Of a DNA stretch of 25,743 nt, positions 3,016 to 24,882 are shown piece after piece. The DNA lies in contig JBBIOR010000014.1 in the NCBI GenBank assembly GCA_037443265.1, positions 1 to 25,743 on the forward strand. The letters run 5' to 3'. The position numbers were made by a program, and so were the translations under genes. This DNA comes from Candidatus Fraserbacteria bacterium (GTDB taxonomy: Bacteria; Bipolaricaulota; Bipolaricaulia; RBG-16-55-9). Numbering within the stretch: the first letter of the stretch is position 1; every line of letters begins with the position of its first letter. Under the pieces are notes generated by a model. The model did no database searches. It saw only the letters and a list, made by a program, of their open reading frames with translations, and had not been told where the DNA came from.

Positions 3016-3509
3016 TCCATGCGGGCTTCGCCGCGCTTGACCAGGGGATCTCGGCCGCTGGCTCCCGGATGCCTCTCTGTCAGCATCTCTTTGGTGTAGA
3101 TCATCTCTTCTCGGGTGTAGCCCGAAAGCTCATACTCGTCACTGAGCACGATGCAGTCGACGGGGCAGATCTCCTCGCAGTCTCCCACGAAGATGCAGCG
3201 CAGCAGGTTGATCTGAAACTCTTCGGCATAGCGATGGGATTTCGAGATGGGCTGGTCTTTGGGATTGGGGGCGTCCTTCACATAGATGGCCTGAGCCGGG
3301 CAGACGATCTCACAGAGATGGCACGCGATGCAGCGCTCCAAGCCGTCTTCCCAGAGCCTCAAGTAATGACGCCCGCGGAACATCGTCGGCGGCTTCCGCT
3401 TCACATCGGGATATTCGATCGTTATGGGCTTCTCAAAGAGATAGCGGAAGGTGACGCTCATCCCTTTGAGCATGGCCGACAGGCCTTCTAAGGCGTTCTT
3501 CACAGACAT
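3012..3509 (-). CDS. nuoI: complex I NuoI-like ferredoxin subunit with an altered second Fe-S motif
   Basis: TIEYP, FRGRH, ERCIACHLCEIVCP, then RCIFVGDCEEICP (Val where Cys is canonical). Confidence 0.92.
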   Translation of the reverse strand: MSVKNALEGLSAMLKGMSVTFRYLFEKPITIEYPDVKRKPPTMFRGRHYLRLWEDGLERCIACHLCEIVCPAQAIYVKDAPNPKDQPISKSHRYAEEFQINLLRCIFVGDCEEICPVDCIVLSDEYELSGYTREEMIYTKEMLTERHPGASGRDPLVKRGEARMD

Positions 3510-3516
3510 GATTCGA

Positions 3517-4689
3517 TCACCGATCCACGTCTCCTAGCACAGGATCAATGCTGGCGATGGCCACGACGGCATCGGCCAGATACCCGCCCTCAATCAGAAG
3601 GGGCAGCGCTTGGACGTTGGCAAACGAAGGCGAGCGCATCCGTACTCGAAGGGGCTTGTTGCTCCCGTCGCTTATGACCCAGTAGCCCTTCTCGCCTCGA
3701 GGCGACTCGATGGTGACGTATGATTCGCCCGGCGGGACAAAGTGTCCCTTATGCGGATGAGGCTTCTGAATGCGACGATCTTCTACGATCACCGGGCCTG
3801 CCGGCAGCCTCTCGAGGGCCTGCTCGATGATCCGAAGACTCTGCTCCATCTCGGCCATCCGGATCAGATAGCGCGCATAGGCATCCCCGGCCTGCTGCGT
3901 GGGAATCTCAAATTGAAAATCGCCGTAGGCAGAGTACGGGAACGCTTTTCGTACATCATAGGCGACGCCACAGGATCGCAACATCGGCCCGGTCAGCCCA
4001 TAGGCATAGCATTGCTCTGGGGTGACGACCGCCACGCCCTCGTTGCGCATCCTCCAGATGGGATTCTTCGTCAGAAGATCATGATACTCTTCGAGGTGAG
4101 GGCGAAACTCTCTGATGAAGTTTCGGACGGCATCCTCGAAGCCACGGGGAAGATCGCGCATCACGCCGCCAACTCTGAAATATCGCGGGAACATCCGGGC
4201 CCCCGAGACCATCTCAAATAGATCCAAGACGGCCTCGCGGTCGCGGAAGCAGTACATGAACACGCTCGAGACGTTGAGTTCCAGCGCACCGGTCCCCAGC
4301 CAGACCAAGTGACTCGCGATCCGGGCCAGTTCGCAGATCATCACGCGTATGTATTGAGCGCGCTTGGGGGCCTCAATCCCGAGGAGTTTCTCGACGGCCA
4401 GCACGTAGCCCATCTCTTCGTTGGGCGCGGAGAGATAATCCATGCGGTCGATCAACGGAATGGCTTGATGATACGTGCGGTACTCGCATTCTTTCTCAAT
4501 GCCTGTATGCAGATAGCCGATGTGGGGCTCACAGTGGACGATCCGCTCTCCGTCGAGCTCGAGCACGAGACGCAATACGCCGTGCGTGCTGGGATGCTGG
4601 GGTCCGAGATTGAGCACCATCGTCTCTGGACCCTTAATCTCGTCCGTGGGCACTCTTTCTAGATTCAGATCCCAGTGTTCTTTATTCAT
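3517..4689 (-). CDS. nuoD: NADH-quinone oxidoreductase subunit D
   Basis: [33 protein letters not shown]-terminal DPVLGDVDR; no hydrogenase CxxC. Confidence 0.96.
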
Positions 4690-5215
4690 GTTGTTTGGGG
4701 ATGATTTCGCTCGGGAGCTTCTGGCTGATGGCTCCCTTGAACTCCACGGGCTCTTCCGTAAGCGGGTAGTCCTTTCGCAAGGGGTGTCCGATCCACTCGT
4801 CGGGCATGAGGATTCTCCTCAGGTGGGGATGCCCTTCAAAGCGAATTCCGTAGAAATCGAACAATTCTCGCTCGAACCAGTTGGCCATGGGCCAGAGCTT
4901 TGTGGCCGAAGGCAGCAGCGGATCATCGCGCCCCACTTTCACTTTGAGGATCAACTTGACGAGCTGTTCTGACGAATGAAGCACATAAATCACATGAAAG
5001 TACGGCTCGATTTCCAGATAATCCGCTGCGGTTAGATCATAAAGCACGTTGAATTGAAGCTCCTCTTTGGCGAACTTCAAAAGATCCATCAGAGCCTCTT
5101 TCTTGACCACGAGCATCGTCTGGCTGGATTTAAGGACGATCTTTTCGAGGATGGCCTCGGGGTATCGCTCGCGCATTCGGGCCACGGCCTTCTCTAGGTG
5201 CTCTGCGTTCTCCAC
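4682..5215 (-). CDS. nuoC: NADH-quinone oxidoreductase subunit C
   Basis: [27 protein letters not shown]...GHPLRKDYP signature; GTG start. Confidence 0.95.
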
Positions 5216-9928: not shown

Positions 9929-11971
9929 CTAACGCGCGCGCTCAATGCGCGCGGCGCAGACCTTCAGCTCAGTGATCCCGCAGATGGGGTCGACCGCGTC
10001 GTTGGTGAGGGTATTCGTAGGCACCTCGGCATAGTGGAACGGCATCCAGAGGACGCCCGCTTTGATCTCTACGATCTGGGCCTTCACCGTGAGTACGCCA
10101 CGGCGGGTGCGCACCTGCACCCGATCTCCAGCTTGAATGCCCAACCTCTGAGCATCTTGGGCGCTGATCTGCACGAAATTCTCCGGCTCGCCCCGGCCCG
10201 CTTTGGTCCGGCGGGTCATCGTCCCCGCGTTGTACTGCATAAACGTCCGGCCCGTCGTCAGCAAGAAGGGGTACTTATCGTCAGGGGGCTCTGCGGGCGG
10301 GAAGTACTCGACCCCGCTCAGAAGAGCCCGCCCCCGCCTGAACTTCTCCTTGTGCAAGAACTTCGTGCCCGGATGCCTTTCATCGGGGCAGGGCCACTGC
10401 AGCCCGTAGCTCCTCTCTAAACGGTTATAACGGATCCCCGCGTAGATGGGCACTAATCTTCTGATCTCTTCAAAGATCTCTTCCGGGTGGGAGTAGTGCA
10501 TGGGGTAGCCCATGCATTGGGCAAGTTCACATAAGATGACCCAATCAGGCTTGCTATTCCCAATGGGCTCAATCGCTTTTCTTATGCGCTGAACGCGTCG
10601 TTCGGAGTTGACGAACGTCCCGTCCTTCTCAGCAAAGCTGGCCGCGGGCAAGACCACATGGGCAAATTGAGTGGTGCGGCTGGGGAAGATCTCTTGCACG
10701 ATGAGTAGCTCAAGGCTCTGTAGAGCCTTCTCGACTTTGGCGATGTGGCCCTCGGTGAGCGCCGGGTCGCTCCCAATGATATAGAGCGCCTTGAGTTCGC
10801 CCATGAGCGCGCGCTCCCACATCCGCGAGCAGAAGAGGAAGTAGTCCTTCTGGGGCACCGGCAGCTTCACGCCCCAAGCCGCCTCAAACTTCTGGATGAC
10901 TTGAGGATCTTCCCAGCTCTGGTAGCCGGGGAGCCACTCGGGAGCGCACATGTCCGTGGCGCCCTGGACGTTGTTTTGCCCGCGCAGCGCGTTGATCCCG
11001 CTCGATTCCCTGCCCAAGTTGCCCGTGATCAAGGCGAGGTTGCCCAGTGCCTTGACGTTGTCCACCCCGGTGCGATGCTCGGTCACTCCCAGACCGTAGA
11101 CGATGCTGGCGGGCTTTGCGCGGGCGTACAGTTCCGCAGCTTCTTTGATCTGGGGCGCGCTCAAGCCGCAGAGTCTCTCTACGGACTCGGGAGTGTACTT
11201 CCGTACGACGCTCCAGAAGCGATCGAAGTGCTCGCAGCGCTCCTCGATGAACGCTGCGTCATGGAGACGATGGGCGATGATGTGCTGGGCCATGGCATTG
11301 AAGAGCGCCACTTCCGTCCCTGGCTGGATCTTTAAGTGAATCGTTGCAAGCTTGGCCAACTCGGTAGTCCGCGGATCGATGACGATGAGCTTGGCCCCAT
11401 TTCGGATGGCTCTTTTGATCCAAACGGTCCAGATGATAGGGTGGGCGTGGGCGGTGTTGCTGCCCACAATCAGAAAGGCTTTGGGGCCGGGCTCTAGGAA
11501 CTCCGAGATCGAGTTGGTCATGGCTCCACTACCCAAGACCTCTTTGAGCGCGATGGCTGTTGCCGAATGGCAGATGCGAAAGCATTGATCCACGTTATTG
11601 GTGCCCAGCACCGCGCGCGCGAACTTCTGCGCTAAATAATTCTCCTCGACGGTGGCGCGCGCGGAGCTGATCACCCCGATGGCGTCAGGGCCATAGCGCT
11701 CTTGGATGCGCTTGAGCTCCTTGGCTATAAAAGCATAGGCTTCGTCCCAGCTGATCTCGGCAAGCTGGTCGTTTTTGCGTAGGAGTGGCTTGGTAAGGCG
11801 TTCTGCGTGATGGACGACCTCATACGCCGTGGCGCCTTTGGGGCAGAGCGTCCCGCGGCTGATGGGGTGCTCCGGGTCAGGACGCAAGCCGATGACTTTG
11901 CCCTTCGCAGTCTTCAGAAGCAAGCCGCAGCCGACGCCGCAGTAGGGGCAGACGGATTTGACCTCTTTCAT
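9929..11971 (-). CDS. fdhF: formate dehydrogenase alpha subunit-like molybdopterin oxidoreductase (FdhF family, Cys type)
   Basis: CPYCGVGC...LCPKG [4Fe-4S] motif, RICH metal ligand (Cys, not Sec), LRGQNNVQG, EKDGTFVNSERRVQ, PFLLTTGR; start placed at MKEVKSV (11971). Confidence 0.88.
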   Translation of the reverse strand: MKEVKSVCPYCGVGCGLLLKTAKGKVIGLRPDPEHPISRGTLCPKGATAYEVVHHAERLTKPLLRKNDQLAEISWDEAYAFIAKELKRIQERYGPDAIGVISSARATVEENYLAQKFARAVLGTNNVDQCFRICHSATAIALKEVLGSGAMTNSISEFLEPGPKAFLIVGSNTAHAHPIIWTVWIKRAIRNGAKLIVIDPRTTELAKLATIHLKIQPGTEVALFNAMAQHIIAHRLHDAAFIEERCEHFDRFWSVVRKYTPESVERLCGLSAPQIKEAAELYARAKPASIVYGLGVTEHRTGVDNVKALGNLALITGNLGRESSGINALRGQNNVQGATDMCAPEWLPGYQSWEDPQVIQKFEAAWGVKLPVPQKDYFLFCSRMWERALMGELKALYIIGSDPALTEGHIAKVEKALQSLELLIVQEIFPSRTTQFAHVVLPAASFAEKDGTFVNSERRVQRIRKAIEPIGNSKPDWVILCELAQCMGYPMHYSHPEEIFEEIRRLVPIYAGIRYNRLERSYGLQWPCPDERHPGTKFLHKEKFRRGRALLSGVEYFPPAEPPDDKYPFLLTTGRTFMQYNAGTMTRRTKAGRGEPENFVQISAQDAQRLGIQAGDRVQVRTRRGVLTVKAQIVEIKAGVLWMPFHYAEVPTNTLTNDAVDPICGITELKVCAARIERAR

Positions 11972-12055
11972 ATGTGAATTCTCACCGCCGCCCTTTCCAG
12001 AGATTCCAATCTTCATAGTCCTTGACATTGTAGGGGGAATGTGTTTCAACTCACT

Positions 12056-12288
12056 ATGACGAAGATCATCCGAGAGATACGCGAGGGCCGTCCCTTGGAC
12101 TCCGCTCGCTTGCGCTACGCCGCTGGACATGCCGCGATCTTTCTGGGCATTGGCCTGGACGTCGATCCGAAGCCCATCTATTTGAAGGGCACGACCGGCA
12201 TCTGCTACAAGAGATCCAGGCGCGCATGGATCGCGACTGGGATGCGCTGGTGAGCAAATGCCGCGGTCGCAAGCCCATCGCGATCTGA
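12056..12288 (+). pseudogene. collapsed relic of a GltD-like gene joined to a PorB-like C-terminus
   Basis: KIIREIREGRPLDSAR, LRYA and HAAIFLGIGL occur in the same order as segments of the 20451-22121 protein; then PKPI.YLKG and, in another frame, HLLQEIQARMDRDWDALVSKC (PorB-like end), TGA at 12286-12288. Confidence 0.72.
12062..12108 (+). repeat. 47 bp dispersed repeat, inverted relative to 21907-21953
   Basis: 12071-12105 is the exact reverse complement of 21910-21944 (35 bp); 3 mismatches over 47 bp. Confidence 0.95.
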
Positions 12289-12943: not shown

Positions 12944-15412
12944 ATGAGCCAGAGACTTTCACCTGAGCAACTTCGACGTGTGTTCGACTCGAAAGAGCTG
13001 GGATGCGATACGACTGAAAATTTCCCGCCGCTTGTAGACATCATCGGCCAGGAGCGCGCCGTAAAGGCCCTCAAATTCGGTCTAGGCATCCAAGCTGTCG
13101 GCTTCAATACGTACGTGGCCGGACCTCCGGGCATCGGCAAGATGACAGCAGTTCAAGCGTTTCTGCAGGAGCTAGCGAAGAAGAAAGAGACTCCGCCGGA
13201 TTGGTGTTACGTCAACAACTTCGCCGATCCCGATCAGCCCAAGGCGCTCAAGCTCCCCACGGGCCGCGGCCGCGAGCTTCAGCGGGACATGAAGAATTTC
13301 ATCGAACACGTCCGACGCGAGATCCCCAAGGCCTTCGAGAGCGATGAATATGAAGCTCGACGCGAAGAGATCATCAAGACGTTTACCGAGCAGCGCGAGG
13401 CAGTGCTGGCGCACATCAGCGCGCACGCGATGGAAGCTGGCTTCACTCTTCAGGCGACGCCCATGGGCGTGCTCATGATCCCCGTCGTGAAGGGACAACC
13501 CCTAAGTGAAACGGAATTCCTTGCCTTGCCCACTGAGGAGCGTGAGAGACTGCAGCACCGCCGTGAGGAGCTCCAAGAAGAACTGAAGGTGGCCTTCAAA
13601 CAGACCCGCGAGTTGGAGCGGCAGGCACAGGAGAAACTGCAAGAACTGGATCAGCGAGTGGCGCTGTTCATCGTCGGCGGCCTCATCGAAGACCTCTTCG
13701 AGAAATACAAAGACTTGCCGGAGGTCACGGAATATCTCAAGAGCGTCCAGAAAGCTATCCTCGAAGATATCGAGTCTTTCAAAGCCAAGCCGGCCAGTGA
13801 GCCACAGCCATCTCCGGATGGCGGGCCTCCGATGCCCTGGGTACAAGACCTGCCCTTCCGCAAGTATCAAGTGAACGTGCTGGTAGACAACAGCCAACAG
13901 CAGGGGGCTCCGGTCGTGGTGGAACTCAACCCCAGCCACAGCAATCTCTTTGGACGCATCGAAAAGGAGACGCTCTTTGGGGCGCTATACACGGACTTTA
14001 CGATGATCAAGGCCGGCGCGCTCCATCGCGCGAATGGGGGTTATTTGGTCCTGCCCATTGAAGATCTTCTGAAGAATCTTTTCAGCTGGGATGGACTCAA
14101 GAGGGCCCTGCGCAGTCGGCAGATCGAGATCGAGGAGATGGGAGAGCGTTTGGGCTTTGTGTCTACCAAGAGCCTGCGGCCTCAGCCGATCCCACTCGAT
14201 GTGAAAGTGATCCTCGTCGGGCACCCCCTGTTCTATTATCTGTTGCACGCCTACGATGAGGAGTTTCCTGAACTCTTCAAAGTCAAAGCCGATTTCGATA
14301 CTCGCATGGACACCAACGAAGCGAACATTCGCGCGTTCATCTCGTTTCTGTGCACCCTCTGCCAGAAGGAGAAGTTGAAGCATTTAGACGCGGGGGCCAT
14401 CGCCCAGATGCTCGAATATGCGGCGCGCCTAGCCGAAGATCAACAGAAGCTTTCTACGCACTTTGGGGCGATCGCGGATCTGGTGCGCGAGGCACACTTC
14501 TGGGCCTCACAAGATCGCTCGCGCTATGTCACCGCCCAACATGTCAAGCGGGCTCTCGAGGAGAAGGTCTATCGCTCGAAGCTGCTCCAAGAGCATATTG
14601 CAGAGCTGATCGCTCGAGGGACCCTGCTCATTGACACCCGGCAGCAAGTCATAGGCCAAGTCAACGGGCTCTCCGTGATCAATCTAGGGGATTATGAGTT
14701 CGGAAGACCGGTGCGGATTACGGCGAGTGTGGCTCCAGGTCGTGAGGGGATCATCGACATCGAGCGCGAGGTGGAGCTGGCCGGCCCGATCCACAGCAAA
14801 GGGGTCATGATCCTGGGCGGGTATCTCTCCTACCAGTACGCCCAAGGGATGCCGCTTTCTCTGGCCGCGCGGCTCGTCTTCGAGCAGAGCTATGAGGGCA
14901 TCGAAGGCGATAGCGCTTCGAGCGCCGAACTGTACGCGCTGTTATCGGCGCTTTCTGGGTTGCCCCTCAAGCAGGGCATTGCTGTGACAGGCTCCGTCAA
15001 TCAGCGAGGGGAAGTCCAGGCCATCGGCGGTGCCAACGAGAAGATCGAGGGCTTCTTCGAGATCTGCAAGCTCCAAGGACTGACCGGAGAGCAAGGCGTA
15101 ATGATCCCGGCCAGCAACGTGCAGCACTTGATGCTGCGGGAAGACGTGATCGAGGCCGTGCGCCAGGGCCAGTTTCATATCTGGGCCGTCAAGACCATCG
15201 ACGAGGGCATCGAGATTCTGACGGGAGTGCCGGCCGGTGAGCGCAGCCGTGACGGCACATTCAAGAAAGGGACTGTGAACTACCGCGTTCAGCAACGCCT
15301 GAAAGAACTGGCCGAGTGCCTGCAGGAGCTGCCTGAAGGAGCTCCACCCAAGAAGCGAGGGAAATCGCCACGCAAGAAACGTCCCTCTCCTCCAAAGCGA
15401 CAAAGGACTTGA
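12944..15412 (+). CDS. Lon-like (LonC/AAA_32 type) protease
   Basis: IIGQERA, GPPGIGK, coiled-coil insert, LHRANGGYL, GQVNGL, EGDSAS (Ser) and EKIEGFF (Lys) dyad; GAGGAGG RBS. Confidence 0.92.
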   Translation: MSQRLSPEQLRRVFDSKELGCDTTENFPPLVDIIGQERAVKALKFGLGIQAVGFNTYVAGPPGIGKMTAVQAFLQELAKKKETPPDWCYVNNFADPDQPKALKLPTGRGRELQRDMKNFIEHVRREIPKAFESDEYEARREEIIKTFTEQREAVLAHISAHAMEAGFTLQATPMGVLMIPVVKGQPLSETEFLALPTEERERLQHRREELQEELKVAFKQTRELERQAQEKLQELDQRVALFIVGGLIEDLFEKYKDLPEVTEYLKSVQKAILEDIESFKAKPASEPQPSPDGGPPMPWVQDLPFRKYQVNVLVDNSQQQGAPVVVELNPSHSNLFGRIEKETLFGALYTDFTMIKAGALHRANGGYLVLPIEDLLKNLFSWDGLKRALRSRQIEIEEMGERLGFVSTKSLRPQPIPLDVKVILVGHPLFYYLLHAYDEEFPELFKVKADFDTRMDTNEANIRAFISFLCTLCQKEKLKHLDAGAIAQMLEYAARLAEDQQKLSTHFGAIADLVREAHFWASQDRSRYVTAQHVKRALEEKVYRSKLLQEHIAELIARGTLLIDTRQQVIGQVNGLSVINLGDYEFGRPVRITASVAPGREGIIDIEREVELAGPIHSKGVMILGGYLSYQYAQGMPLSLAARLVFEQSYEGIEGDSASSAELYALLSALSGLPLKQGIAVTGSVNQRGEVQAIGGANEKIEGFFEICKLQGLTGEQGVMIPASNVQHLMLREDVIEAVRQGQFHIWAVKTIDEGIEILTGVPAGERSRDGTFKKGTVNYRVQQRLKELAECLQELPEGAPPKKRGKSPRKKRPSPPKRQRT

Positions 15413-15454: not shown

Positions 15455-15898
15455 ATGATCTACTCAAACGCTTGTGAGTATGCGATTCGAGCTCTGACCT
15501 ATCTGGCGCGGAATTCTGAGCAGGCGTGCCTAGCTAAAGAGATCTCACAAGGCGAGAAAATCCCGCATTATTTCCTGAGCAAGATCCTCCAAGATCTGGC
15601 AAGAAAGGGACTGCTCAAGTCTATGAAGGGACCTGGAGGTGGCTTCCGATTAGCCAAATCAGCCGAGAAACTCACGCTCTACGAGATCAAGAAGGCCATC
15701 GACGGTGTGGCCGATCTGGATGAGTGCGCCGTGGGACTTGCTCGGTGCAACGATCATATGCCTTGCCCGCTGCACGATACGTTCAAGCCTCTGCGCGAAC
15801 AGATTAAAGAATATTTGCAGACGACCACGCTGGCAGACATGGCGAGTGCTGTCGAGAAAAAGAGGGCTTCAAAAGCCCGAAGAAAAGCCGCTAGATGA
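15455..15898 (+). CDS. Rrf2-family transcriptional regulator with three C-terminal Cys
   Basis: EYAIRAL, FLSKILQDL, KGPGGGF, C-AVGLAR-C-NDHMP-C-PLH. Confidence 0.93.
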   Translation: MIYSNACEYAIRALTYLARNSEQACLAKEISQGEKIPHYFLSKILQDLARKGLLKSMKGPGGGFRLAKSAEKLTLYEIKKAIDGVADLDECAVGLARCNDHMPCPLHDTFKPLREQIKEYLQTTTLADMASAVEKKRASKARRKAAR

Positions 15899-17001
15899 GC
15901 CGCGTCCAGATCGCACTAGAGAGAGCTATTCCAGAGTTCATTTTTGATCGTTCCCCCTTGCTTGTCTATTGGGAGGCTACACGCGCGTGTGATCTGGCCT
16001 GTGTGCATTGCCGTGCTGAAGCCATCCCGAAGAGACACCCGCTGGAGCTGAGCACAGCAGAAGCCAAGGCCCTCCTCTGCCAGATTGCGCAGTTTGATGA
16101 AAACCACGCCCCGCACGTGGTGATCACGGGTGGGGATCCGCTCCAACGTCCAGATCTCTTGGAGTTGATCAGGTATGGAAGGGAGCTTGGTCTCTCCATC
16201 TCCGTCACGCCGGCGGGCACTCAAAGACTCACCCCCAGAGCCATACAGGAGTTGCAAGAGGCAGGAGTGAGCAGCTTAGCGCTCAGCCTCGACGGCTCAG
16301 ATGCCACCACACATGATGCCTTCCGCGGAGTCCCCGGCTCTTTTGGGTGGACGGCCCTAGCCGCCCAAGCGGCCGAGGCCGAAGGCATTCCGCTGCAGAT
16401 CAACACCATGGTCACGGCCCGGACGCTGAACGATCTCCCCCGCACCTATGAGCGGGTGAAGAGCTGGAGAGTTACCCGCTGGGCACTCTTCTTTTTGATT
16501 GCTACGGGGCGAGGGCGAGCTCTCGAGGAGATCACACCTCAGCAGAGCGAGGCATGGCTCAACTGGCTCTGTGACCTGGCTGAGTCAGGGGAGACGCCTT
16601 TTGCCATCAAGACGACGGAAGCTCATCACATCCGCCGGATCGCATTTTTGCGGATGCAAGCACGGGGGATGGATGAAGAGCAGATTTTGAGAACACCCAT
16701 AGGCCGTGGCTTCGGCGTGCGCGATGGGAACGGCATCGTCTTCGTGTCGCACCTTGGCCAGATCTACCCCAGCGGCTTTCTCCCCTTGGCGGCGGGGAAT
16801 ATCCGCTCCGCACGCTTGGGAGAGGTCTATCGCCACAGCGAGCTGTTTCGTGCACTGCGAGATACGAATCGCCTGAAGGGCAAATGCGGCCGCTGCCCGT
16901 TTCGCGTGATCTGCGGCGGCTCGCGGGCGCGTGCTTATGCCCTAACGGGCGATCCGTTGGAGAGTGATCCCCTCTGTCCCTATCAGCCAAAAGCTTCATA
17001 A
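15895..17001 (+). CDS. radical SAM/SPASM protein (NirJ/Ahb-related, resembles TIGR04053)
   Basis: WEATRACDLACVHCRA, ITGGDPL, SLDG, HDAFRG, CGRC...CGGSRARA...DPLC; ATGA overlap with rrf2. Confidence 0.9.
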   Translation: MSRVQIALERAIPEFIFDRSPLLVYWEATRACDLACVHCRAEAIPKRHPLELSTAEAKALLCQIAQFDENHAPHVVITGGDPLQRPDLLELIRYGRELGLSISVTPAGTQRLTPRAIQELQEAGVSSLALSLDGSDATTHDAFRGVPGSFGWTALAAQAAEAEGIPLQINTMVTARTLNDLPRTYERVKSWRVTRWALFFLIATGRGRALEEITPQQSEAWLNWLCDLAESGETPFAIKTTEAHHIRRIAFLRMQARGMDEEQILRTPIGRGFGVRDGNGIVFVSHLGQIYPSGFLPLAAGNIRSARLGEVYRHSELFRALRDTNRLKGKCGRCPFRVICGGSRARAYALTGDPLESDPLCPYQPKAS

Positions 17002-17555: not shown

Positions 17556-17861
17556 TCAATCTTCGCCGAACTCCTTGATCAACCCATCGGTCTCCTTGGT
17601 CCAGTTCACCCCAGCCCCTAGCTGTTCGACCAACTTTGCATACGCGGGCCAGTGGGTTTTCAAATAGCCCTCCAGCGCCACGGCAGCGGATTCGTTGTCC
17701 GTCGTGGCGATGAAATGCGCAAGCCAGGAAGGCCCGACCTTCTCGATCACCTCATCCAACACGACTTGGAGCGCCCAACACTGCGGCCCCCGCTCGCCAC
17801 ACTCGGCCAAAAGACTGGCCGTCTGTCCGATCGCTTCCTCCTCATCCCAATGCTTCTTCAT
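17556..17861 (-). CDS. hypothetical protein, last gene of the kor operon
   Basis: 101 aa ORF whose ATG abuts the korC stop, AAAGGAG RBS; no family recognised. Confidence 0.7.
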   Translation of the reverse strand: MKKHWDEEEAIGQTASLLAECGERGPQCWALQVVLDEVIEKVGPSWLAHFIATTDNESAAVALEGYLKTHWPAYAKLVEQLGAGVNWTKETDGLIKEFGED

Positions 17862-18413
17862 TTAGATCGCTCCTTTCACGGCCCGCTCGGCCAGCTGCTC
17901 TCCCGCCTCTAGAGCTTGTTCATTGAGAGCGCGGAAGCGCTCCGGCACGCGCTTAGAGACGGCCTCTCGCAAACTTTCGGGTGACACCAGACCCACTAAG
18001 GCATTCATCACCCCCAAGGCCACTACATTGGCCACCACTCTGCTGCCGACTCTGACCGCTGTCTCCGTGATCGGGAAGGCGCGCACCAACTCACCCAGGT
18101 GTGCCCCGCAGTCGACATGGCTGGAGTCGAGGATCATCAAGGTGTCAGAGTTAGTCTGCGAGCGATATTTCTCGAAGGCATCTTGAGATAAGCAGAGCAA
18201 GATGTCGGGCTTTGTGACTTGGGGATACGCGATCTTCTTTGTAGAGATGATGAGTTCTGCCTTGCTGGCTCCTAGCCGCGCCTCGGGGCCGTAGCTCTGC
18301 GTCTGCACCACGTTCTTGCCGTCGAGGACTGCCGCTTCAGCCAAGATCACTCCTGCTGTGATCAGGCCCTGACCTCCAGCGCCGCTTAGGCGGATCTGCA
18401 CAGGATCTTTCAT
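17862..18413 (-). CDS. korC: 2-oxoacid:ferredoxin oxidoreductase gamma subunit
   Basis: IRLSGAGGQG, QTQSYGPEARLGAS, ANVVALG; start MKDPVQ with ATGA overlap with korB. Confidence 0.92.
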   Translation of the reverse strand: MKDPVQIRLSGAGGQGLITAGVILAEAAVLDGKNVVQTQSYGPEARLGASKAELIISTKKIAYPQVTKPDILLCLSQDAFEKYRSQTNSDTLMILDSSHVDCGAHLGELVRAFPITETAVRVGSRVVANVVALGVMNALVGLVSPESLREAVSKRVPERFRALNEQALEAGEQLAERAVKGAI

Positions 18414-19240
18414 TCCGAGCCTACCCTGGCGCTCCGAGCCATCTGGCAGAGTTGCCGATAGAGCTCCGTGTACTCTATCCTCTGCTCGTCTTTGAAGACG
18501 CCCGTAGGCAATCTCCCCATCGACTTCGCTTCGTCGAGGACCGCTGCCTCCTCCAGGGGAATGGTAGTTTCTTTGAGGTAGTGCAGCATCTCGTAAGGCT
18601 CGCGCAGATCGTTCAGGCGCCCAAAATACGTCGGGCAGGAAGTCAAGACTTCCACCACTGAAAAACCCTTGTGGGCTAGAGCCCGTTTGAGCAATGCGCG
18701 CAGTTCTTGGAAGTCGAAGACGGTGGTGCGGGCAACGAAGCCGGCTCCGGCCCCGAGCGCCAATTGGCACAGATCAAACGCCGGCTCGATGCTGCCCAAA
18801 AGGCTCGTCGTGCTGCGCTTGCCTTGAGGCGTTGTGGGCGCAAGTTGGCCTCCGGTTTGGCCGTAGATCGCGTTATTGAATACGATGGCCGTAAGATCAA
18901 TGTTGCGCCGGCAGGCATGGATGAAGTGATTCCCCCCGATGGCCGCGGCATCGCCATCCCCCATGGCTACGATCACCCTCAGATCCGGACGTGTGAGTTT
19001 TATGCCTGTGGCGAAGGCGAGCGCCCGCCCATGGGTCGCATGCAATGTGTTATAGTCTAGAAGGAAGGGCGTGCGCCCCGAGCAGCCGATGCCCCCCACG
19101 ACGACAACCTCATCTTTCTCCCATCCCAAGGCAGCCACGGCGTCTACTAAGGCCTTGACGATGACTCCGTTGCCGCAGCCGGGGCACCAGACGCTCGGCA
19201 GCTCCTCTGCTCTCAGATACTCTCTGTAGTACTCACTCAT
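18410..19240 (-). CDS. korB: 2-oxoacid:ferredoxin oxidoreductase beta subunit (TPP-binding)
   Basis: WCPGCG, GIGCSG, HGRALAFATG, GDGD..IGGNH, NNAIYGQTGGQ, CPTYFG. Confidence 0.94.
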   Translation of the reverse strand: MSEYYREYLRAEELPSVWCPGCGNGVIVKALVDAVAALGWEKDEVVVVGGIGCSGRTPFLLDYNTLHATHGRALAFATGIKLTRPDLRVIVAMGDGDAAAIGGNHFIHACRRNIDLTAIVFNNAIYGQTGGQLAPTTPQGKRSTTSLLGSIEPAFDLCQLALGAGAGFVARTTVFDFQELRALLKRALAHKGFSVVEVLTSCPTYFGRLNDLREPYEMLHYLKETTIPLEEAAVLDEAKSMGRLPTGVFKDEQRIEYTELYRQLCQMARSARVGSE

Positions 19241-19244
19241 GTCC

Positions 19245-20420
19245 TTAATCCCTCTCTTCTTTTCTTTCGCCTTTTTGATCGCGTTGACGGATGTGCTCAT
19301 AAATCTGCTGAGGTGTGATGAGGCTGCCGTCGACTCGGCCCAAGTGCTCGACAGGAAGAGATCGACCCGGAAGCCCCTGTACCGCCCGCTGGACCTCGCG
19401 CACCAGCTGGCCCAAATTCAACTCCGGCACCAGAATGTGCTCGATCTGAGGGGCAAGCTCCTCGAAGAGGAAGTCCGGGAAGGGCCAGAGCGTCTTCAGA
19501 TTCAGCAAGCCTGCGGGAACACCCTCTGCGCGGAGCTGCTCGACGGCCATCGCCGCGGCACGGCTGGTGATCCCGTAGCTTACGATCAGCATCCGAGTGT
19601 CGTCGAGATAGAGCTCCTCATAGAGGGCCAGCTCTGCGGCATTCTGGTTGATTTTATGGATGATGCGGCGCAGCTGTCGCTCGGCTTCTTCTCCCTGCAC
19701 CGGGAAGCCCCACTCATCGTGGGCCATGCCCGTGACGTTGAAACGCACTCCTGCTCCAAACGGGAGGAAGCCCTGATCCGCAAACGGCTTGAAGTCAGCT
19801 AGACTGGTCGGCCGTCGGCGCTCGAGCACCAACAGCTCCCCCGGCTCGGGCATTTTTATATTCTCGCGCATGTGGGAGAGCACCTCATCGAGCAATACAA
19901 TGACGGGCACCCGGTACTGCTCAGCGAAGTTAAACGCAGCCACCGTCATCTCGAAGACGTCGCGCACGTGCGAGGCTGTCAAGACGATCACAGGGTGATC
20001 GCCGTGGGTGCCCCAGATGGCTTGCATCACGTCTCCTTGCGAGGTCTTGGTGGGCTGCCCTGTGGAAGGCCCCCAGCGCTGGCAGTCCACGATCACGCAG
20101 GGGGTCTCTGTGATGGCCGCGTAGCCGATGCCCTCTTGCATGAGCGAAAAGCCCGGGCCGCTGGTGGCCGTCATGGCCTTCACGCCAGCCCAAGAGGCAC
20201 CGATCACGGCCGAAATGGAAGCGATCTCATCTTCCATCTGGATGAAGACTCCGCCCAGTTTGGGCAGCTCTCTGGACATGAGTTCCATGATCTCGGAGCT
20301 GGGCGTGATGGGATAGCCCGCATAGAAGCGACAACCCGCGTAGAGCGCTCCGAAGGCGCAGGCCTCGTTGCCCTGGATGAGCCGCTGCTGCTCCTTCGCT
20401 TTCACGTGGCGTTCAGGCAT
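19245..20420 (-). CDS. korA: 2-oxoacid:ferredoxin oxidoreductase alpha subunit
   Basis: GNEA, YPITPSSE, QMEDE, ATSGPGFSLMQE, GPSTGQPT, ELNLGQ. Confidence 0.94.
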   Translation of the reverse strand: MPERHVKAKEQQRLIQGNEACAFGALYAGCRFYAGYPITPSSEIMELMSRELPKLGGVFIQMEDEIASISAVIGASWAGVKAMTATSGPGFSLMQEGIGYAAITETPCVIVDCQRWGPSTGQPTKTSQGDVMQAIWGTHGDHPVIVLTASHVRDVFEMTVAAFNFAEQYRVPVIVLLDEVLSHMRENIKMPEPGELLVLERRRPTSLADFKPFADQGFLPFGAGVRFNVTGMAHDEWGFPVQGEEAERQLRRIIHKINQNAAELALYEELYLDDTRMLIVSYGITSRAAAMAVEQLRAEGVPAGLLNLKTLWPFPDFLFEELAPQIEHILVPELNLGQLVREVQRAVQGLPGRSLPVEHLGRVDGSLITPQQIYEHIRQRDQKGERKEERD

Positions 20421-20450
20421 CTTGAGCTCTCTCTTCTCTTCTGTTTTAGA

Positions 20451-22121
20451 TTAGATAAGATCTCCGGCTGGCTGCCTCAGGACCGGGCGCGACTTGACCA
20501 TCCAGATGGCAAAATCCGGGCAGCGGGCTTCACACAGCCCGCAGAAGATACACTTCCCAATATCTCTTAACGCGATCTTGCTCTTTCCATCCAGATAAAG
20601 AATGCCGGTAGGGCAACTATTGACGCACAGGGCGCAACCCTTGCAGAGGGCACGGTTGACGGCTATATAGTTCTCCCCTTGGAAGTGCTGGCGTATGCCA
20701 CCCTCCTCTTGCACGGAGATTTCAAGTCTGGGGGGCTCTGCTTCTTTCTCCGCCTGAGCCGATAGATAGCGATGGATGGCCCAGGCGGCGACTCTGCCGT
20801 CTCTTACGGCCTCCACGACCGTGCCCCCGCCGCTCACGCAGTCCCCACCTGCAAAGATATAGGGCTTGCTCGTTTGATACTGCTCATTGATCTGTACCAG
20901 ACCCGCTTTGTGCTCAAGGCCTAGCTGCTCCAGCAGCTCTCGGTGGGGCTGCTGGCCGATGGCCTTGATCACTGCGTCCGCTTCGAGGATGAACTCCGAG
21001 CCCGGCACGGGTTCTGGTGTAGGGCGACCCGACACATCCGCTGCGCCCAGCCTCATGGCGATGCACTCGACTCCTTCGACTCTTTCATTGCCGAGAAACC
21101 GGATCGGGGCTGTTAACCAGAGGAATCGAACCCCTTCTTTCTTGGCCGCGCGTACTTCATGGGCATACGCCGGCATCTCCTTCTCGGTGCGCCGGTAGAG
21201 CACGACGACGTCCTTCGCTCCCAGCCGGACGGCCTCGCGGGCACAATCTATGGCCGTGTTGCCGCCACCGATGACCACGACCCTCTCGCCTACCTGGAGT
21301 TCATTCAACCGCCCACGCTTGAGCCGCTCGATGAACTCAAGGGAATCCCAAACGCCTTCTAGACGCTCCCCTGGAAGATGCGCCTGGACGTCTTTGCTGA
21401 GCCCTACCCCCAAGAAGATCACAGAGTGTCTCTTTTCGAGATCTTTAGACGAGAGATCCCGGCCCACCGTGACGTTGAAGCGGAACTCGACTCCCAAGCC
21501 TCGAATGAGTTCGAATTCTTGGGGCAACGGGTCCAGCAGCTGCTTGTAAGGGGCAATGGCCTGCGTGATCAGGCCGCCCGGCAGCTCTTTACGCTCGTAG
21601 ACTGTGATCCGATAGCCGAGCTTGGCCAGTTCTGCGGCGCACGCGAGTCCGGCCGGTCCCGCGCCGATCACCCCCACGCTCGCACGGGGAGGCTGTCTGG
21701 ATGGGATGCGATTTCGAGCCTTGCGAGCAACAGAGAAGCTATTTTGGCTGTTCTTGAGGGCCCAGTCGGTCGCGTAGCGTTGGAGCCGCCCAATGGAGAC
21801 CGGCCGACGCCCTTCCCTGTGGAGCACGCAGGCTCCTTCGCACAGCACCTCCACCGGGCAGACGCGGGCGCAGCTGCCTCCAAGAATATTCGCTTCCAAG
21901 ATCGTCCGGGCGGAGTCCAAGGGACGGCCCTCGCGTATCTCTCGAATGAACTTGGGGACGTCGATGTGCGTAGGACAGGCAACGGTGCAGGGAGCCGGAG
22001 CGTAGGGCCCGCCACACTCTAGGCAGCGCGTGGATTCAAACAAAGCTTGCAATTCTGTCAGCGGTGGATGGATTTCTGTGAAGACGTTGGGCGCATCCGC
22101 TATGTGCTCTTTCTCAGGCAT
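20451..22121 (-). CDS. GltD/SudA-like NAD(P)H flavoprotein fused to a C-terminal 2[4Fe-4S] ferredoxin (KorD-like)
   Basis: CLEC..PC..ACP and CARVCP..CEGAC Fe-S motifs, GAGPAG, GGGNTA..YRR, FAGGD, then CKGCALCVNSCP and CIFCGLCEARCP; AAAGGAG RBS. Confidence 0.9.
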   Translation of the reverse strand: MPEKEHIADAPNVFTEIHPPLTELQALFESTRCLECGGPYAPAPCTVACPTHIDVPKFIREIREGRPLDSARTILEANILGGSCARVCPVEVLCEGACVLHREGRRPVSIGRLQRYATDWALKNSQNSFSVARKARNRIPSRQPPRASVGVIGAGPAGLACAAELAKLGYRITVYERKELPGGLITQAIAPYKQLLDPLPQEFELIRGLGVEFRFNVTVGRDLSSKDLEKRHSVIFLGVGLSKDVQAHLPGERLEGVWDSLEFIERLKRGRLNELQVGERVVVIGGGNTAIDCAREAVRLGAKDVVVLYRRTEKEMPAYAHEVRAAKKEGVRFLWLTAPIRFLGNERVEGVECIAMRLGAADVSGRPTPEPVPGSEFILEADAVIKAIGQQPHRELLEQLGLEHKAGLVQINEQYQTSKPYIFAGGDCVSGGGTVVEAVRDGRVAAWAIHRYLSAQAEKEAEPPRLEISVQEEGGIRQHFQGENYIAVNRALCKGCALCVNSCPTGILYLDGKSKIALRDIGKCIFCGLCEARCPDFAIWMVKSRPVLRQPAGDLI

Positions 22122-22804
22122 GGGTACTCCTTTGAGAGGGGGCTGGGCTCGAGGTTCTTGCCCAGGGGAATCACGTGCAGAACTTCAAATCCCAGGGCCT
22201 TAAAGTAAGAAAGAAGATCGCCTTCAAACCAGTCCACCAGCGTCCGCACTCGGGTGACGCCTCTCTTTGTGAATTCCGCCATCAAGGCCTCCCCGAGCCG
22301 TCGCCCTATGCCTAAGCCCCAAAACTCTGGATCTACTCCCAAGACCTCGATCCAGCCGGTCTTCTCTCCGCTGGCAAACTCCCACAGGCGAATCTCTCCT
22401 AAGGCGAAGCCAACCAGCCGGACGTTCAAAAAAGCCCCCAGGCATGGCTGGCCCTGAGCGATCCGCTGGCGTGCCATCTCTTCCAAGTACAGCAGGCGCT
22501 TCTGGCCGGCCAGGCCGCGATCCTCTTCGATGCTGCTTTCGAGGCACAAGAGCGTCGGAAGATCCTGCAGAGTGAGAGGTCGGATGACGATGTCGTAGAA
22601 GGCCCGCCAGAGCTTCGCGTTGCCCACCTTGCGGCAACGAACTTGGCCCTTGGCTCTGAGGATTTCCAGATATTTCGCGGCGGTGTGCCGGGTGATGCCC
22701 AGCTGCTCGGCCAGCTGCTCGGTGTGCACTTCCGCTTTGGCCTCCTTGAGGATGGCCAGGATCTCCGCTTCGATGGCCCGCTGCACGCCCGCTGCCTCTG
22801 CCAT
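22100..22804 (-). CDS. winged-HTH plus GNAT acetyltransferase fusion protein
   Basis: N-terminal TEQLAEQLGITRHTAAKYLEIL...KVGNAKLW; C-terminal GEIRLWEF and VLGVDPEFWGLGIG acyl-CoA motif A. Confidence 0.85.
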   Translation of the reverse strand: MAEAAGVQRAIEAEILAILKEAKAEVHTEQLAEQLGITRHTAAKYLEILRAKGQVRCRKVGNAKLWRAFYDIVIRPLTLQDLPTLLCLESSIEEDRGLAGQKRLLYLEEMARQRIAQGQPCLGAFLNVRLVGFALGEIRLWEFASGEKTGWIEVLGVDPEFWGLGIGRRLGEALMAEFTKRGVTRVRTLVDWFEGDLLSYFKALGFEVLHVIPLGKNLEPSPLSKEYPCLRKST

Positions 22805-22856
22805 GTGGGCCACTCCCCCCTTCTGGTAACCCTTAGCGGTCACCAAGGGACAATCC

Positions 22857-22921
22857 ACTGTAAAGGGGCTTCGGCGATTCTGCCGTGAGGGTTCTCACAG
22901 CAGAGTGTTGGCTTTCTCACA
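22857..22921 (-). promoter_or_regulatory. tandem Crp/Fnr-type boxes with a class II promoter
   Basis: minus strand TGTGA-GAAAGC-CAACA (22921-22906) and TGTGA-GAACCC-TCACG (22899-22884); -10 TACAGT at 22862-22857 puts the proximal box centre near -41.5. Confidence 0.7.
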
Positions 22922-22925
22922 GCGC

Positions 22926-23615
22926 CTAGAGGAGGGCTTGCAGGCGGGCTCGATCCAAGAGCAAGATCTTTCGGCCTTCCGTGGCAATCAGCCCACGGGC
23001 TTTGAACCGACTGAGCGTGAGAGAGGCCGTCTCGCGGGCGACCCCGATCATCTCTGCCAACTCCGCGCGAGAGAGCTCCAGATCGATGAGAGTTCCTTGG
23101 GGATGCGTACGGCCGTGCGCAGAAGCCAGTTGAAGCAAGAGGTACGCCAACTTGCTAGGGGCGCCCTGCCGTGTGGTCGCAAAGATGCGCTCTTGGAGGC
23201 GGGCCACTTCATCCGAGAGTTTTTCAATGAGTGCCGCGGCCAGCTGTGGGTATCGCTCCAGAAGCCGCGCAAAGTGCCCCTTGTCCACGAAGCCTACGCG
23301 GGTCTTCTCCAGCGCTTCGGCCTCCCAGCTTAGGCGGCCGGAGCGCATCGCCTCCAGCCCCAGAATGTCCCCAGGGCCAAGCACAGCGACGATGAGCTTC
23401 TTGCCATTGGCCAGATGCCGGATGAGCTTGACCGTTCCTTCACAGATGATCGAGTAGCCATAGAGGGGAGCGCCCTGCGGAAAGATCAGTTGACCCGGCT
23501 CGTATTCGAGAGTCTGCGTGAAATCCTCCGGACGAAACGAGAACTCCTTGCGGCTCACATCCAGCAGGATGCAAGCCTCATTGAGGCAGTATCTGCACGG
23601 CTCGTGGCTCGTCAA
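22926..23615 (-). CDS. Crp/Fnr-family transcriptional regulator with an N-terminal Cys cluster
   Basis: CRYCLNEAC, cNMP-like barrel (IFPQG, EGTVKL, GPGDILG), HTH LSRAELAEMIGVARET; TTG start. Confidence 0.92.
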   Translation of the reverse strand: MTSHEPCRYCLNEACILLDVSRKEFSFRPEDFTQTLEYEPGQLIFPQGAPLYGYSIICEGTVKLIRHLANGKKLIVAVLGPGDILGLEAMRSGRLSWEAEALEKTRVGFVDKGHFARLLERYPQLAAALIEKLSDEVARLQERIFATTRQGAPSKLAYLLLQLASAHGRTHPQGTLIDLELSRAELAEMIGVARETASLTLSRFKARGLIATEGRKILLLDRARLQALL

Positions 23616-23619
23616 CCCC

Positions 23620-24807
23620 CTAGATCACTCCCAGCTCTTGTCCGACTTTCCGGAAGGCCGCAATGCCCTGGTCTAGATCTGCGCGCCGGTGGGCGGCCGA
23701 GATCATCACCCGAATGCGGGCCTGGCCCTTTGGCACCGTCGGATACCCGATGGCCATCGCGAAGACCCCCTCTTCGAAGAGCCTTCGGCTAAACTGCTGA
23801 GCCAACGGAGCCTCCCCCAGCATGATGGGCACAATCGGAGTCTGGCTTCGACCCATCTCGAAGCCCAGCTGGGCCATCTGCTCTTTGAAATAGCGCGTAT
23901 TCTCCCAGAGCCTGTCGACCAGCTCTGTGGAGCGCTCGAGCAGATCAATCGCGGCGAGGCAGGCGGCCGTGTCGGGAGGGGTCGTCGCACTGGAGAACAA
24001 GAAGGGGCGTGCCCGCTGTCGCAGATACTCGATGATGAGGGCCCTTCCGGCCACGTAGCCGCCCACCACCCCGAAGGCCTTCGACAGGGTGCCCACTTCG
24101 ATGTCCACTCGCCCGTGCAGGCCGAAGTGATCGACGATGCCTCTTCCTCCGCGGCCCAGCACCCCTTCCCCGTGCGCGTCGTCCACCATGAGGAGTGCTT
24201 GGTGTTCTTCACAGATCTCAGCTATCTTATCCAGAGGCGCAATATCCCCGTCCATGGAGAAGACGCCGTCCGTGATCACGAGCACTCTCTGATAGCCCTT
24301 CTGCGCCGCCTCCTTAAGACGAGCCTCCAAATCCTGCACATCGCAGTGTTTATAGATCATGCGATCAGCCTTGCTGAGCCGCACCCCATCGATGATCGAG
24401 GCGTGATTGAGCTCATCGCTGATGATGAGATCCCCTTCACCCATGAGCAGCGGGATGACGGCTTGATTCGCATTGAAGCCCGATTGCAAGGCAATGGCTG
24501 CTTCCACGCCTTTGAAGCGTGCCAACCTTCTTTCGAGCTCCAAATGGAGATCCAGCGTGCCCGCGATCGTGCGCACCGCGGCCGGACCGACACCGTATTT
24601 TTCAATCGCAGAGATCGCCGCGCGGCGCAGCTCTGGGTGGTTGGCCAGATTTAAATAATTATTGGAGCAGAAGTTGAGCACCCGCTGGCCATCGACGATG
24701 AGCCACGCCCCCTGAGGCGATTGGATCGTGCGAATATCGATATAAAGGCCGGTCTTTTTCAGCTCTTCTAGGCTTTGGCGGATGAAGGCGAGCTTCTCGC
24801 TCGACAT
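23620..24807 (-). CDS. kbl: glycine C-acetyltransferase / PLP-dependent alpha-oxoamine synthase
   Basis: [53 protein letters not shown]; BioF-like activity not excluded. Confidence 0.85.
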
Positions 24808-24852
24808 AGTTCCTCCTCCCCTATGTGACCATTCCGTCCCTCTCAAGCACGC

Positions 24853-24882
24853 ATTATAGCTCCCGTCTCCCGGCCCTGTCGA
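24853..24882 (-). promoter_or_regulatory. candidate sigma70 promoter for kbl
   Basis: minus strand TCGACA, 18 bp, TATAAT. Confidence 0.6.

Follow-up and report, generated by a model that had tools for sequence, protein, structure and literature searches.

A candidate NADP(H)-linked 2-oxoacid oxidoreductase with a flavoprotein-ferredoxin fusion and a conserved promoter with putative sites for two regulators in Candidatus Fraserbacteria

A DNA stretch of 25,743 nucleotides from Candidatus Fraserbacteria bacterium, an uncultured anaerobe (contig JBBIOR010000014.1; referred to as the window) carries, at positions 17556 to 23615, genes for a 2-oxoacid:ferredoxin oxidoreductase (OFOR), a flavoprotein-ferredoxin fusion and two candidate regulators. 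The genome amounts to 1.69 Mb in 44 contigs and is 88% complete. Genes were called from six-frame open reading frames (ORFs) together with Pfam and NCBIfam models, and the genes of this unit all lie on the minus strand: crp/fnr (22926..23615; cNMP_binding and HTH_Crp_2 domains); a winged helix-turn-helix (wHTH) protein joined to an acetyltransferase domain, wHTH-GNAT (22100..22804; HTH_11 and Acetyltransf_1); the fusion protein GltD-Fd of 556 amino acids (20451..22121; Fer4_20, Pyr_redox_2 and a C-terminal 4Fe-4S dicluster domain); korA for the OFOR α-subunit (19245..20420; POR_N and PFOR_II, 535.3 bits with NF006412 against a cut-off of 411, and E = 1.4e-118 with 1yd7_A); korB for the β-subunit with thiamine pyrophosphate (TPP) and [4Fe-4S] (18410..19240; TPP_enzyme_C at 2.1e-34, and 318.6 bits with NF007207, below the cut-off of 364); korC for the γ-subunit (17862..18407; POR domain at 1.9e-32, and 165 bits with NF006323, below the cut-off of 235); and an ORF of 101 amino acids that abuts korC (17556..17861) and has no Pfam or NCBIfam match. 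All of the genes listed in the initial annotation, from crp/fnr to this ORF, were recovered in the stated place by ORF calls, Pfam, and NCBIfam, and the tandem boxes that it had reported are real: they can be read directly, and their spacing is kept in the orthologous promoters of other genomes. Three further elements were found: a palindrome, GGTGACCGCTAAGGGTTACC; a co-oriented kbl gene 5' of crp; and a paralogous Kor cluster elsewhere in the genome.

The unit is tightly packed. From wHTH-GNAT to the 101-amino-acid ORF, the successive spacings are -22, +30, +4, +2, and 0 nt, no convincing minus-strand terminator was found within the unit, and the gap between crp and wHTH-GNAT is 121 nt. The start of wHTH-GNAT at GTG 22858, proposed by the ORF lister, falls within the predicted -10 hexamer, and ATG 22804 has a G-rich Shine-Dalgarno sequence; therefore, the latter is the likely start. 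The korB start was moved from 19300 to 19240, guided by the paralogue, and the cysteine motifs of KorB (WCPGCG, GCSG, and SCPT) are visible in its sequence. The end of wHTH-GNAT and the start of GltD-Fd overlap by 22 nt (22100-22121), with the GltD frame one base off. A frameshift at this junction as an artefact was considered and dropped, since the ATG of GltD-Fd has its own AAGGAG Shine-Dalgarno sequence 5 nt upstream, within the end of the wHTH-GNAT gene; for the same reason, the two are regarded as separate, translationally coupled genes. By eye only, no canonical slippery heptamer was seen in the overlap, and a low level of a frameshift fusion of the two proteins is conceivable. A complex prediction for wHTH-GNAT with GltD-Fd (score of 0.00, mark of 0.32) gave no answer and counts for neither side.

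Residues 13-456 of GltD-Fd align with NfnB of Thermotoga maritima (4ylf_B; E = 2.6e-103) and with NfnI of Pyrococcus furiosus, and the protein has the features of the NfnB/GltD/SudA group: a Fer4_20 domain with eight cysteines, the GxGxxG motif for FAD, and GGGNxA followed by YRR for NADPH. A protein homology search found 104 clusters of homologous fusions, labelled in their sources simply as "FAD-dependent oxidoreductase", "glutamate synthase small chain" or "PreT"; one of these clusters, P0082, carries the NCBI name Candidatus Bipolaricaulia. In a motif alignment of 47 of the 104 clusters, which omitted the wHTH-bearing and shortened ones, the eight Fer4_20 cysteines, the eight cysteines of the C-terminal ferredoxin domain, GAGPAG, GGGNxA, and YRR were invariant or at least 90% conserved. 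GAGPAG is the FAD motif, and we take GGGNxA and YRR, by analogy with GltD/NfnB, to be the NADPH motif. The C-terminal ferredoxin domain contains two CxxCxxCxxxC motifs and is 67-69% identical to the free 91-amino-acid ferredoxin encoded directly 5' of the paralogous korA (on contig C6; see below). Among the NCBIfam models, OorD fits this domain best, but at 45 bits it does not reach the cut-off of 93. No NfnA (FAD/2Fe-2S) or GltB partner was found in the operon with Pfam and NCBIfam, and the NfnA/PyrK-type Fe-S domain (PF10418) had no match in the 88%-complete genome. PadH, the ε-subunit of phenylglyoxylate:NAD+ oxidoreductase (PadEFGHI), was considered as kin of the flavoprotein and rejected: the flavoprotein scored only 19.1 bits (E = 3e-4) with NF045765, which requires 475. 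The same genome encodes a second, different GltD-type fusion, a protein of 819 amino acids that begins with a 2Fe-2S domain, continues with a 4Fe-4S dicluster and a GltD-like module, and ends in DUF7508 (C7:75032-77491, i.e. L073:3032-5491, minus strand).

The genomic neighborhood was compared among 33 related loci: 16 with a GltD at least 48% identical to that of the window and 17 with one at most 43% identical. An OFOR directly follows GltD in 12 of the 16 closer loci, but in none of the 17 more distant ones (0/17), and the loci with this adjacency span several phyla. They show two layouts. In one, GltD and the ferredoxin precede KorA, KorB, and KorC, and the two are fused in the window, L005, L009, and L011 and encoded by separate genes in Gemmatimonadota. 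In the other, assigned with Pfam in Balneolaceae, Actinomycetes, and Thermoleophilia metagenome-assembled genomes, GltD is followed by γ, (δ-)α, and β of another OFOR subfamily. A close GltD orthologue (E ≤ 1e-100) was present in 26 of the 35 genomes of the window's order. One genome (G104; L060:7938-11201) has a complete second OFOR of a different subfamily (γ, α, and β) between a wHTH-GNAT-GltD gene and ferredoxin-KorABC, and this double-OFOR layout is also found in a locus of Balneolaceae (L006). In two others (G098 and G099), korC is followed by another GltD-like gene, which is unfused and 31-45% identical (L069:3038-4537 and L070:9695-11194), and a two-flavoprotein complex might be formed there. 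The fusion of the δ-type ferredoxin to the flavoprotein is widespread in uncultured phyla.

A paralogous Kor cluster lies on another contig of the same genome (C6:1-13854; L072), within an operon for a bzd-type benzoyl-CoA reductase that is headed by a wHTH-GNAT paralogue with 53% identity. The gene order is wHTH-GNAT, amidohydrolase, dienoyl-CoA-hydratase-like protein, bzdN, bzdO, BzdP-like activase, bzdQ, free ferredoxin, KorA, KorB, KorC, and a copy of the 101-amino-acid ORF, and the NCBIfam scores of bzdN (499.8 against a cut-off of 453.8 bits), bzdO (642 against 448.6), and bzdQ (447 against 380) all exceed their cut-offs. Identities with the window are 82% for KorA, 82% for KorB, 80% for KorC, and 72% for the small ORF, which the contig end truncates. 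Upstream of this operon lie genes for an acyl-CoA dehydrogenase and an O-methyltransferase. Judging from the two gene sets, the genome has two types of Kor: a ferredoxin type together with the ATP-dependent benzoyl-CoA reductase, and the type with an NADP module in the window. A tie of GltD-Kor to aromatic degradation in general was also considered, and was weakened by the distribution of the genes: the GltD orthologue was found in 26 of the 35 genomes of the order, and bzdO above the cut-off in only five of them. The link between GltD and OFOR is thus older than the aromatic pathway and more widespread. Among the 184 genomes searched in the phylum, full-length wHTH-GNAT was found in seven, five of which have bzdO.

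The best-conserved stretches of the wHTH domain are the recognition helix (RHTAAKYLEIL) and the wing (GNAKLW), and the pyrophosphate-binding loop of the GNAT domain, GxGIGRxL, is conserved across the wHTH-GNAT family. The wHTH domain of the window shares 78-86% identity with its L060 and L061 orthologues and 53-71% with six GNAT-linked paralogues, a count without the paralogue on C6. Among 14 wHTH-GltD-Fd fusions, the identity is 64-70% for ten and 26-55% for the remaining four. By a coarser grouping, a range of 60-86% covers the other GNAT-linked proteins and 11 of these 14 fusions, and five copies that are more diverged lie at 26-55%. Such fusions, in which the wHTH is part of the flavoprotein polypeptide, account for 18 of the 104 GltD-Fd clusters and also occur in G098, G099, and G102. 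In genomes of the same family (G098 and G099), the order is Crp, wHTH-GltD-Fd, KorABC, and the second GltD; in G102, which is cut by the contig end, no Crp was seen. In G104, wHTH-GNAT-GltD is a single ORF of 718 amino acids, followed by the second OFOR, ferredoxin, KorABC, and the small ORF. The variable fusion of wHTH, GNAT, GltD, and ferredoxin is Rosetta-stone evidence for a joint function of the four modules, which does not by itself prove a complex in this organism.

The intergenic regions from crp to the wHTH gene were aligned for the window and four relatives (L060, L061, L069, and L070; three genera in total). Both boxes are of the TGTGA type. The distal box (22906..22921, minus strand) reads TGTGAGAAAGCCAACA in the window and TGTTAGCAATCCAACA in L069, and the proximal box (22884..22899, minus strand) reads TGTGAGAACCCTCACG in the window, TGTGAGAATTCTCACA in L060, and TGTGGACTCGTTCAAC in L069. 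The spacing between the two boxes is exactly 22 nt in all five regions, and that from the proximal box to a -10-like hexamer is exactly 21 nt in the window, L060, L069, and L070; in L061, the -10 stretch is covered by N, and only the boxes and the right arm of the palindrome are readable. The hexamer predicted from this alignment is TACAGT in the window (22857..22862, minus strand), TAATCT in L060, and TAGAAT in L069 and L070. No -35 element was found in the aligned promoters. Because of its distance of 21 nt from the -10 hexamer, the proximal box is centered at about -41.5, the class II position of Crp/Fnr activators, and the distal box at about -63.5. Boxes of the TGTGA-N6-TCACA type with at most one mismatch number 47 in this genome, a count given without a chance expectation.

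The 20-bp palindrome (22825..22844, minus strand), a candidate wHTH operator in which the arms GGTGACC and GGTTACC flank GCTAAG, lies at about +6 to +25, between the -10 hexamer and the ribosome-binding site. The pattern GGTnACC-N6-GGTnACC occurs between the -10 hexamer and the start codon of ten wHTH genes compared, with a partial copy in L061, and positions G1, G2, C7, T10, G14, G15, T16, and C20 are invariant over the ten copies. By a strict pattern, the 1.69-Mb genome contains one copy and one degenerate match on C6. The promoters of the wHTH-GNAT paralogues (C6 and L062-L065) follow this plan and carry a perfect TGTGAGAAATCTCACA upstream; in L066, the palindrome is kept together with a sigma-70-type promoter and no boxes; and upstream of L067, no element is evident. 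Since the palindrome accompanies the wHTH gene and the boxes accompany crp, we assign, by inference, the former to wHTH and the latter to Crp/Fnr. The Crp/Fnr protein itself has cysteines at C7-x2-C10-x4-C15 and C58, all of which are kept in six of six orthologues, and its recognition helix, RETASLTLSRF, is nearly identical across them. The genome contains at least 14 genes of the Crp/Fnr family, which is many for its size of 1.69 Mb.

Four loci (the window, C6, L060, and L064) have the 101-amino-acid ORF after korC. The family of this ORF comprises 15 representatives among 1.84 billion proteins, with members of about 100 amino acids. G43, F98, and G99 are invariant, and GPWxxAHF and the C-terminal DFGxD are conserved; the single-sequence model is all-helical, with a predicted local distance difference test score (pLDDT) of 69.8. 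A divergent copy follows an RNase HII gene in the same genome (C2:39939-40223, i.e. L074:2939-3223), and one protein, P0110 (340 amino acids), is a fusion of RNase HII with this domain. The ORF may encode a small accessory protein.

On the other side of the unit, a kbl-type glycine C-acetyltransferase gene of the BioF/Kbl family (23620..24846, minus strand; TIGR01825, 597 bits against a cut-off of 535; NF005394, 562 against 460) ends 4 nt 5' of crp on the same strand, so that crp is probably co-transcribed with kbl. A sigma-70-like promoter 5' of kbl (24853..24882, minus strand; TCGACA-18-TATAAT), predicted from the consensus match only, agrees at 11 of 12 positions, and the Kbl-Crp neighborhood also occurs in L060 and L061. 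Elsewhere in the window, an Rrf2-family regulator and a radical SAM/SPASM protein (TIGR04053, 449.7 bits against a cut-off of 395) overlap by 4 nt (15455-17001), and just upstream lies a LonC-type Lon-like protease (12944-15412). An isolated trio of NuoC, NuoD, and a NuoI-like ferredoxin (3012-5215) and a molybdopterin oxidoreductase of 733 amino acids (9929-12130), whose gene adjoins that of a thiolase, are also present.

Taken together, and with moderate confidence, we read the unit as a four-subunit-type 2-oxoacid oxidoreductase, in which the δ ferredoxin is fused to an NfnB/GltD-type flavoprotein that would deliver electrons to NADP+, under the putative control of Crp/Fnr and wHTH-GNAT. 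The most likely substrate would be 2-oxoglutarate. A 2-oxoacid and CoA would be decarboxylated on TPP in KorAB, and the electrons would pass from the cluster of the β-subunit through the two δ clusters and the two GltD clusters (five [4Fe-4S] in total) to FAD and then to NADP+. The products would be acyl-CoA, CO2, and NADPH, without free ferredoxin, as in the 2-oxoglutarate:NADP+ oxidoreductase (KGOR) of Azoarcus evansii, while the paralogue on C6, with about 80% identity and a free ferredoxin, would instead deliver low-potential ferredoxin. The promoter, with its missing -35 element, would need the four-cysteine Crp/Fnr encoded next to it, which would bind at about -41.5 and -63.5 in response to anoxia or a redox signal, and wHTH-GNAT would bind the palindrome just past the -10 hexamer and be released by a CoA thioester, probably sensed by the GNAT domain. 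What the comparisons show is the domain content, the gene packing, the fusion patterns, and the conservation of motifs and DNA sites; from these, the complex itself, its specificity for NADP+, the reaction direction, the substrate, the Fe-S cluster of Crp/Fnr, the pairing of proteins with sites, and the ligand are deduced.

The initial annotation is largely sensible and is supported in part by these comparisons. Its wiring of the oxidoreductase to NADP(H) agrees with the close relation of the fused ferredoxin domain to the free ferredoxin of the paralogue, with the adjacency of GltD and OFOR in 12 of 16 loci, and with the conservation of the FAD and NADPH motifs and of 16 cysteines; its Fe-S Crp/Fnr activator agrees with the four cysteines in 6/6 orthologues and with the class II geometry of the boxes; and its acyl-CoA-binding HTH-GNAT regulator, with a paralogue that heads the benzoyl-CoA reductase operon and with the conserved palindrome after the -10 hexamer. 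Several observations weigh against our reading. Most GltD orthologues in the order have open frames of about 450-475 amino acids, too short for a ferredoxin domain, and therefore fusion does not prove a stable complex everywhere. KorB, KorC, and the ferredoxin domain score below the NCBIfam equivalog cut-offs, and the flavoprotein below those of GltA/GltD. Crp/Fnr reaches 61.5 bits with the NCBIfam model for Fnr (cut-off of 228) and is not an Fnr equivalog; the spacing of its cysteines (C7, C10, C15, and C58) is unlike that of FNR from Escherichia coli; and another of the Crp/Fnr paralogues could use the boxes. The pairing of wHTH with the palindrome and of Crp/Fnr with the boxes is drawn from position and co-occurrence only, and the palindrome could fold as an RNA hairpin with a 7-bp stem, in which 64 of 70 stem cells pair.

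The short GltD frames of the order would equally suit a free-standing NADPH:ferredoxin oxidoreductase, which balances the ferredoxin pool of a three-subunit KorABC and uses the ferredoxin domain as its own electron entry port; the separate GltD and ferredoxin genes of Gemmatimonadota and the whole second OFOR between GltD and ferredoxin in G104 point in the same direction. We regard this as unlikely, because the operon has no other δ-type ferredoxin, the paralogous cluster has one exactly at this position with 67-69% identity, and the adjacency to OFOR is specific to this subclade of GltD. A reductive role, i.e. an NADPH-driven 2-oxoacid synthase in which the NfnB-type flavin bifurcates with a second, high-potential acceptor, would be in line with bifurcating NfnB as the closest solved relative of the flavoprotein and with the second GltD-like gene after korC in G098 and G099. 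On the other hand, judged by standard potentials, with the 2-oxoacid couple at about -500 mV and NADPH at -320 mV, the oxidative direction is strongly favored, the operon contains no second flavoprotein, and neither the NfnA-type partner nor the NfnA/PyrK-type Fe-S domain was found in the 88%-complete genome. Such a synthase is thus very improbable, and the reverse carboxylation that the initial annotation suggested assaying, if driven by NADPH, is thermodynamically unlikely without bifurcation and is not supported.

The role of wHTH-GNAT allows another explanation: the protein may mainly be an acyltransferase, using the acyl-CoA that Kor produces to modify Kor itself, GltD, or a small molecule, while its wHTH serves as a protein-protein or structural module and the palindrome as a hairpin in the 5' leader RNA. 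The conserved GxGIGRxL loop, the covalent linkage of wHTH and GNAT to the flavoprotein in G104, and the possible 7-bp stem are compatible with such an enzyme. However, nothing in the protein is better conserved than the helix (RHTAAKYL) and the wing (GNAKLW); the element goes with wHTH genes with or without GNAT or boxes (none being evident in L067); and the center of the palindrome (G8, T10, and A11) is conserved and symmetric, with the copy in L064 being a perfect 20-bp palindrome in which no loop is possible. This symmetry and the copy in L064 favor a dimeric DNA-binding protein over an RNA hairpin, and we consider a mainly enzymatic wHTH-GNAT quite unlikely.

The KGOR of A. evansii, studied by Ebenau-Jehle, Boll and Fuchs in 2003, is reportedly of a two-subunit KorAB type, with γ and α fused, plus one flavoprotein; in the window, in contrast, α, β, and γ are separate and δ is fused to the flavoprotein, a comparison at the level of subunit composition. 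Both organisms have a bzd-type benzoyl-CoA reductase, and to our knowledge, the regulators of this locus are not known from Azoarcus. In one paper (PMC10134865), a subunit of the 2-oxoglutarate:NADP+ oxidoreductase (Ebenau-Jehle et al. 2003) falls, together with NsoC, among the GltD/NfnB homologues of a single clade. The two systems share a TPP/Fe-S 2-oxoacid oxidoreductase encoded together with a GltD/NfnB-like subunit, with NADP+ as the acceptor (the probable one here), and the notion that KorC of A. evansii is a small FNR-type protein was dropped in favor of a GltD-like one (PMC10134865). The initial annotation knew of no characterization of such a combination; an NADP-linked 2-oxoacid oxidoreductase with a GltD-like subunit already has a biochemical precedent in A. 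evansii (PMC10134865). The enzyme core is already known in kind, and the four-subunit form with the δ-flavoprotein fusion is a variant of it.

The order and the modules (δ-α-β-γ) are those of four-subunit OFORs such as OorDABC and KorABGD, and KorA resembles 1yd7_A of P. furiosus; unlike them, δ has an N-terminal NADP(H) flavoprotein of 460 residues, by which free ferredoxin is probably bypassed. Similarly, the flavoprotein shares its fold family, eight cluster cysteines, and FAD and NADPH motifs with NfnB of T. maritima (4YLF_B) and GltD, but it lacks an NfnA or GltB partner, scores below the gltA/gltD cut-offs of NCBIfam, and is fused to an OFOR δ ferredoxin. No description of a GltD/NfnB-OFOR fusion, or of a wHTH-GNAT regulator, was found in the literature searched, which did not extend to subscription journals. 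The accessible portions of a 2026 review on the diversity of pyruvate:ferredoxin oxidoreductase (PFOR) (PMC13768988) contain no mention of GltD, glutamate synthase, or flavoprotein, and a 2019 review on Nfn (PMC6405883) contains none of oxoacid, GltD, or NfnB-like.

A closer parallel exists for the promoter. According to the available text of PMC6678401, the bzd operon of Azoarcus sp. CIB has a promoter, PN, at which AcpR acts at -41.5 and BzdR over -10/+1. The arrangement in the window would likewise combine an Fnr-family activator at -41.5 with a repressor over -10/+1 that answers to a CoA thioester, and its wHTH-GNAT, like BzdR, joins a DNA-binding domain to an enzyme-derived sensor domain. 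The parts differ, as far as they are given in this source (PMC6678401): wHTH and GNAT here and XRE-HTH and a shikimate-kinase-like domain in BzdR; GGTnACC-N6-GGTnACC here and TGCA repeats there; and a cysteine spacing of Crp/Fnr unlike that of AcpR. By analogy, the control logic would be that of AcpR and BzdR, built from unrelated parts. What appears to be new lies in the regulation, with a conserved promoter for two putative regulators and a wHTH module that is joined alternately to a GNAT sensor or to the flavoprotein, and both the regulator family and its DNA site appear to be undescribed.

In trigger enzymes such as PutA and BirA, a redox enzyme or a ligase carries a DNA-binding domain. 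In the relatives, the wHTH is likewise part of the flavoprotein polypeptide and the operator is kept 5' of its gene, whereas the wHTH of the window is on a separate GNAT protein. We put forward tentatively, as a possibility about which we have more doubt than confidence, that wHTH-GltD-Fd and wHTH-GNAT-GltD of these relatives are trigger enzymes, i.e. an oxidoreductase subunit and a repressor of its own operon in one protein, which would leave the GGTnACC palindrome upon a change in the redox state of flavin or Fe-S, in NADP(H) occupancy, or in a CoA thioester. In the window, the sensor would have been split off as wHTH-GNAT, through which one acyl-CoA signal would connect the NADP-linked Kor with the benzoyl-CoA reductase operon.

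2-Oxoacid:ferredoxin oxidoreductases settle whether central carbon oxidation feeds its electrons into low-potential ferredoxin or into the pool of NADPH. The presence of two near-identical Kor enzymes in one genome, one with a free ferredoxin and the other with an NADP(H) module, suggests a simple genetic way to split this flux, and the δ-flavoprotein fusion is a candidate for a ferredoxin-free, NADPH-generating decarboxylase. The wHTH family would represent a compact regulatory system, with a sharply conserved 20-bp site and a DNA-binding domain whose fusion partner is either a sensor domain or the enzyme, and may exemplify an enzyme subunit that doubles as a repressor; if true, the trigger enzyme would be a PutA-like switch for anaerobic 2-oxoacid metabolism.

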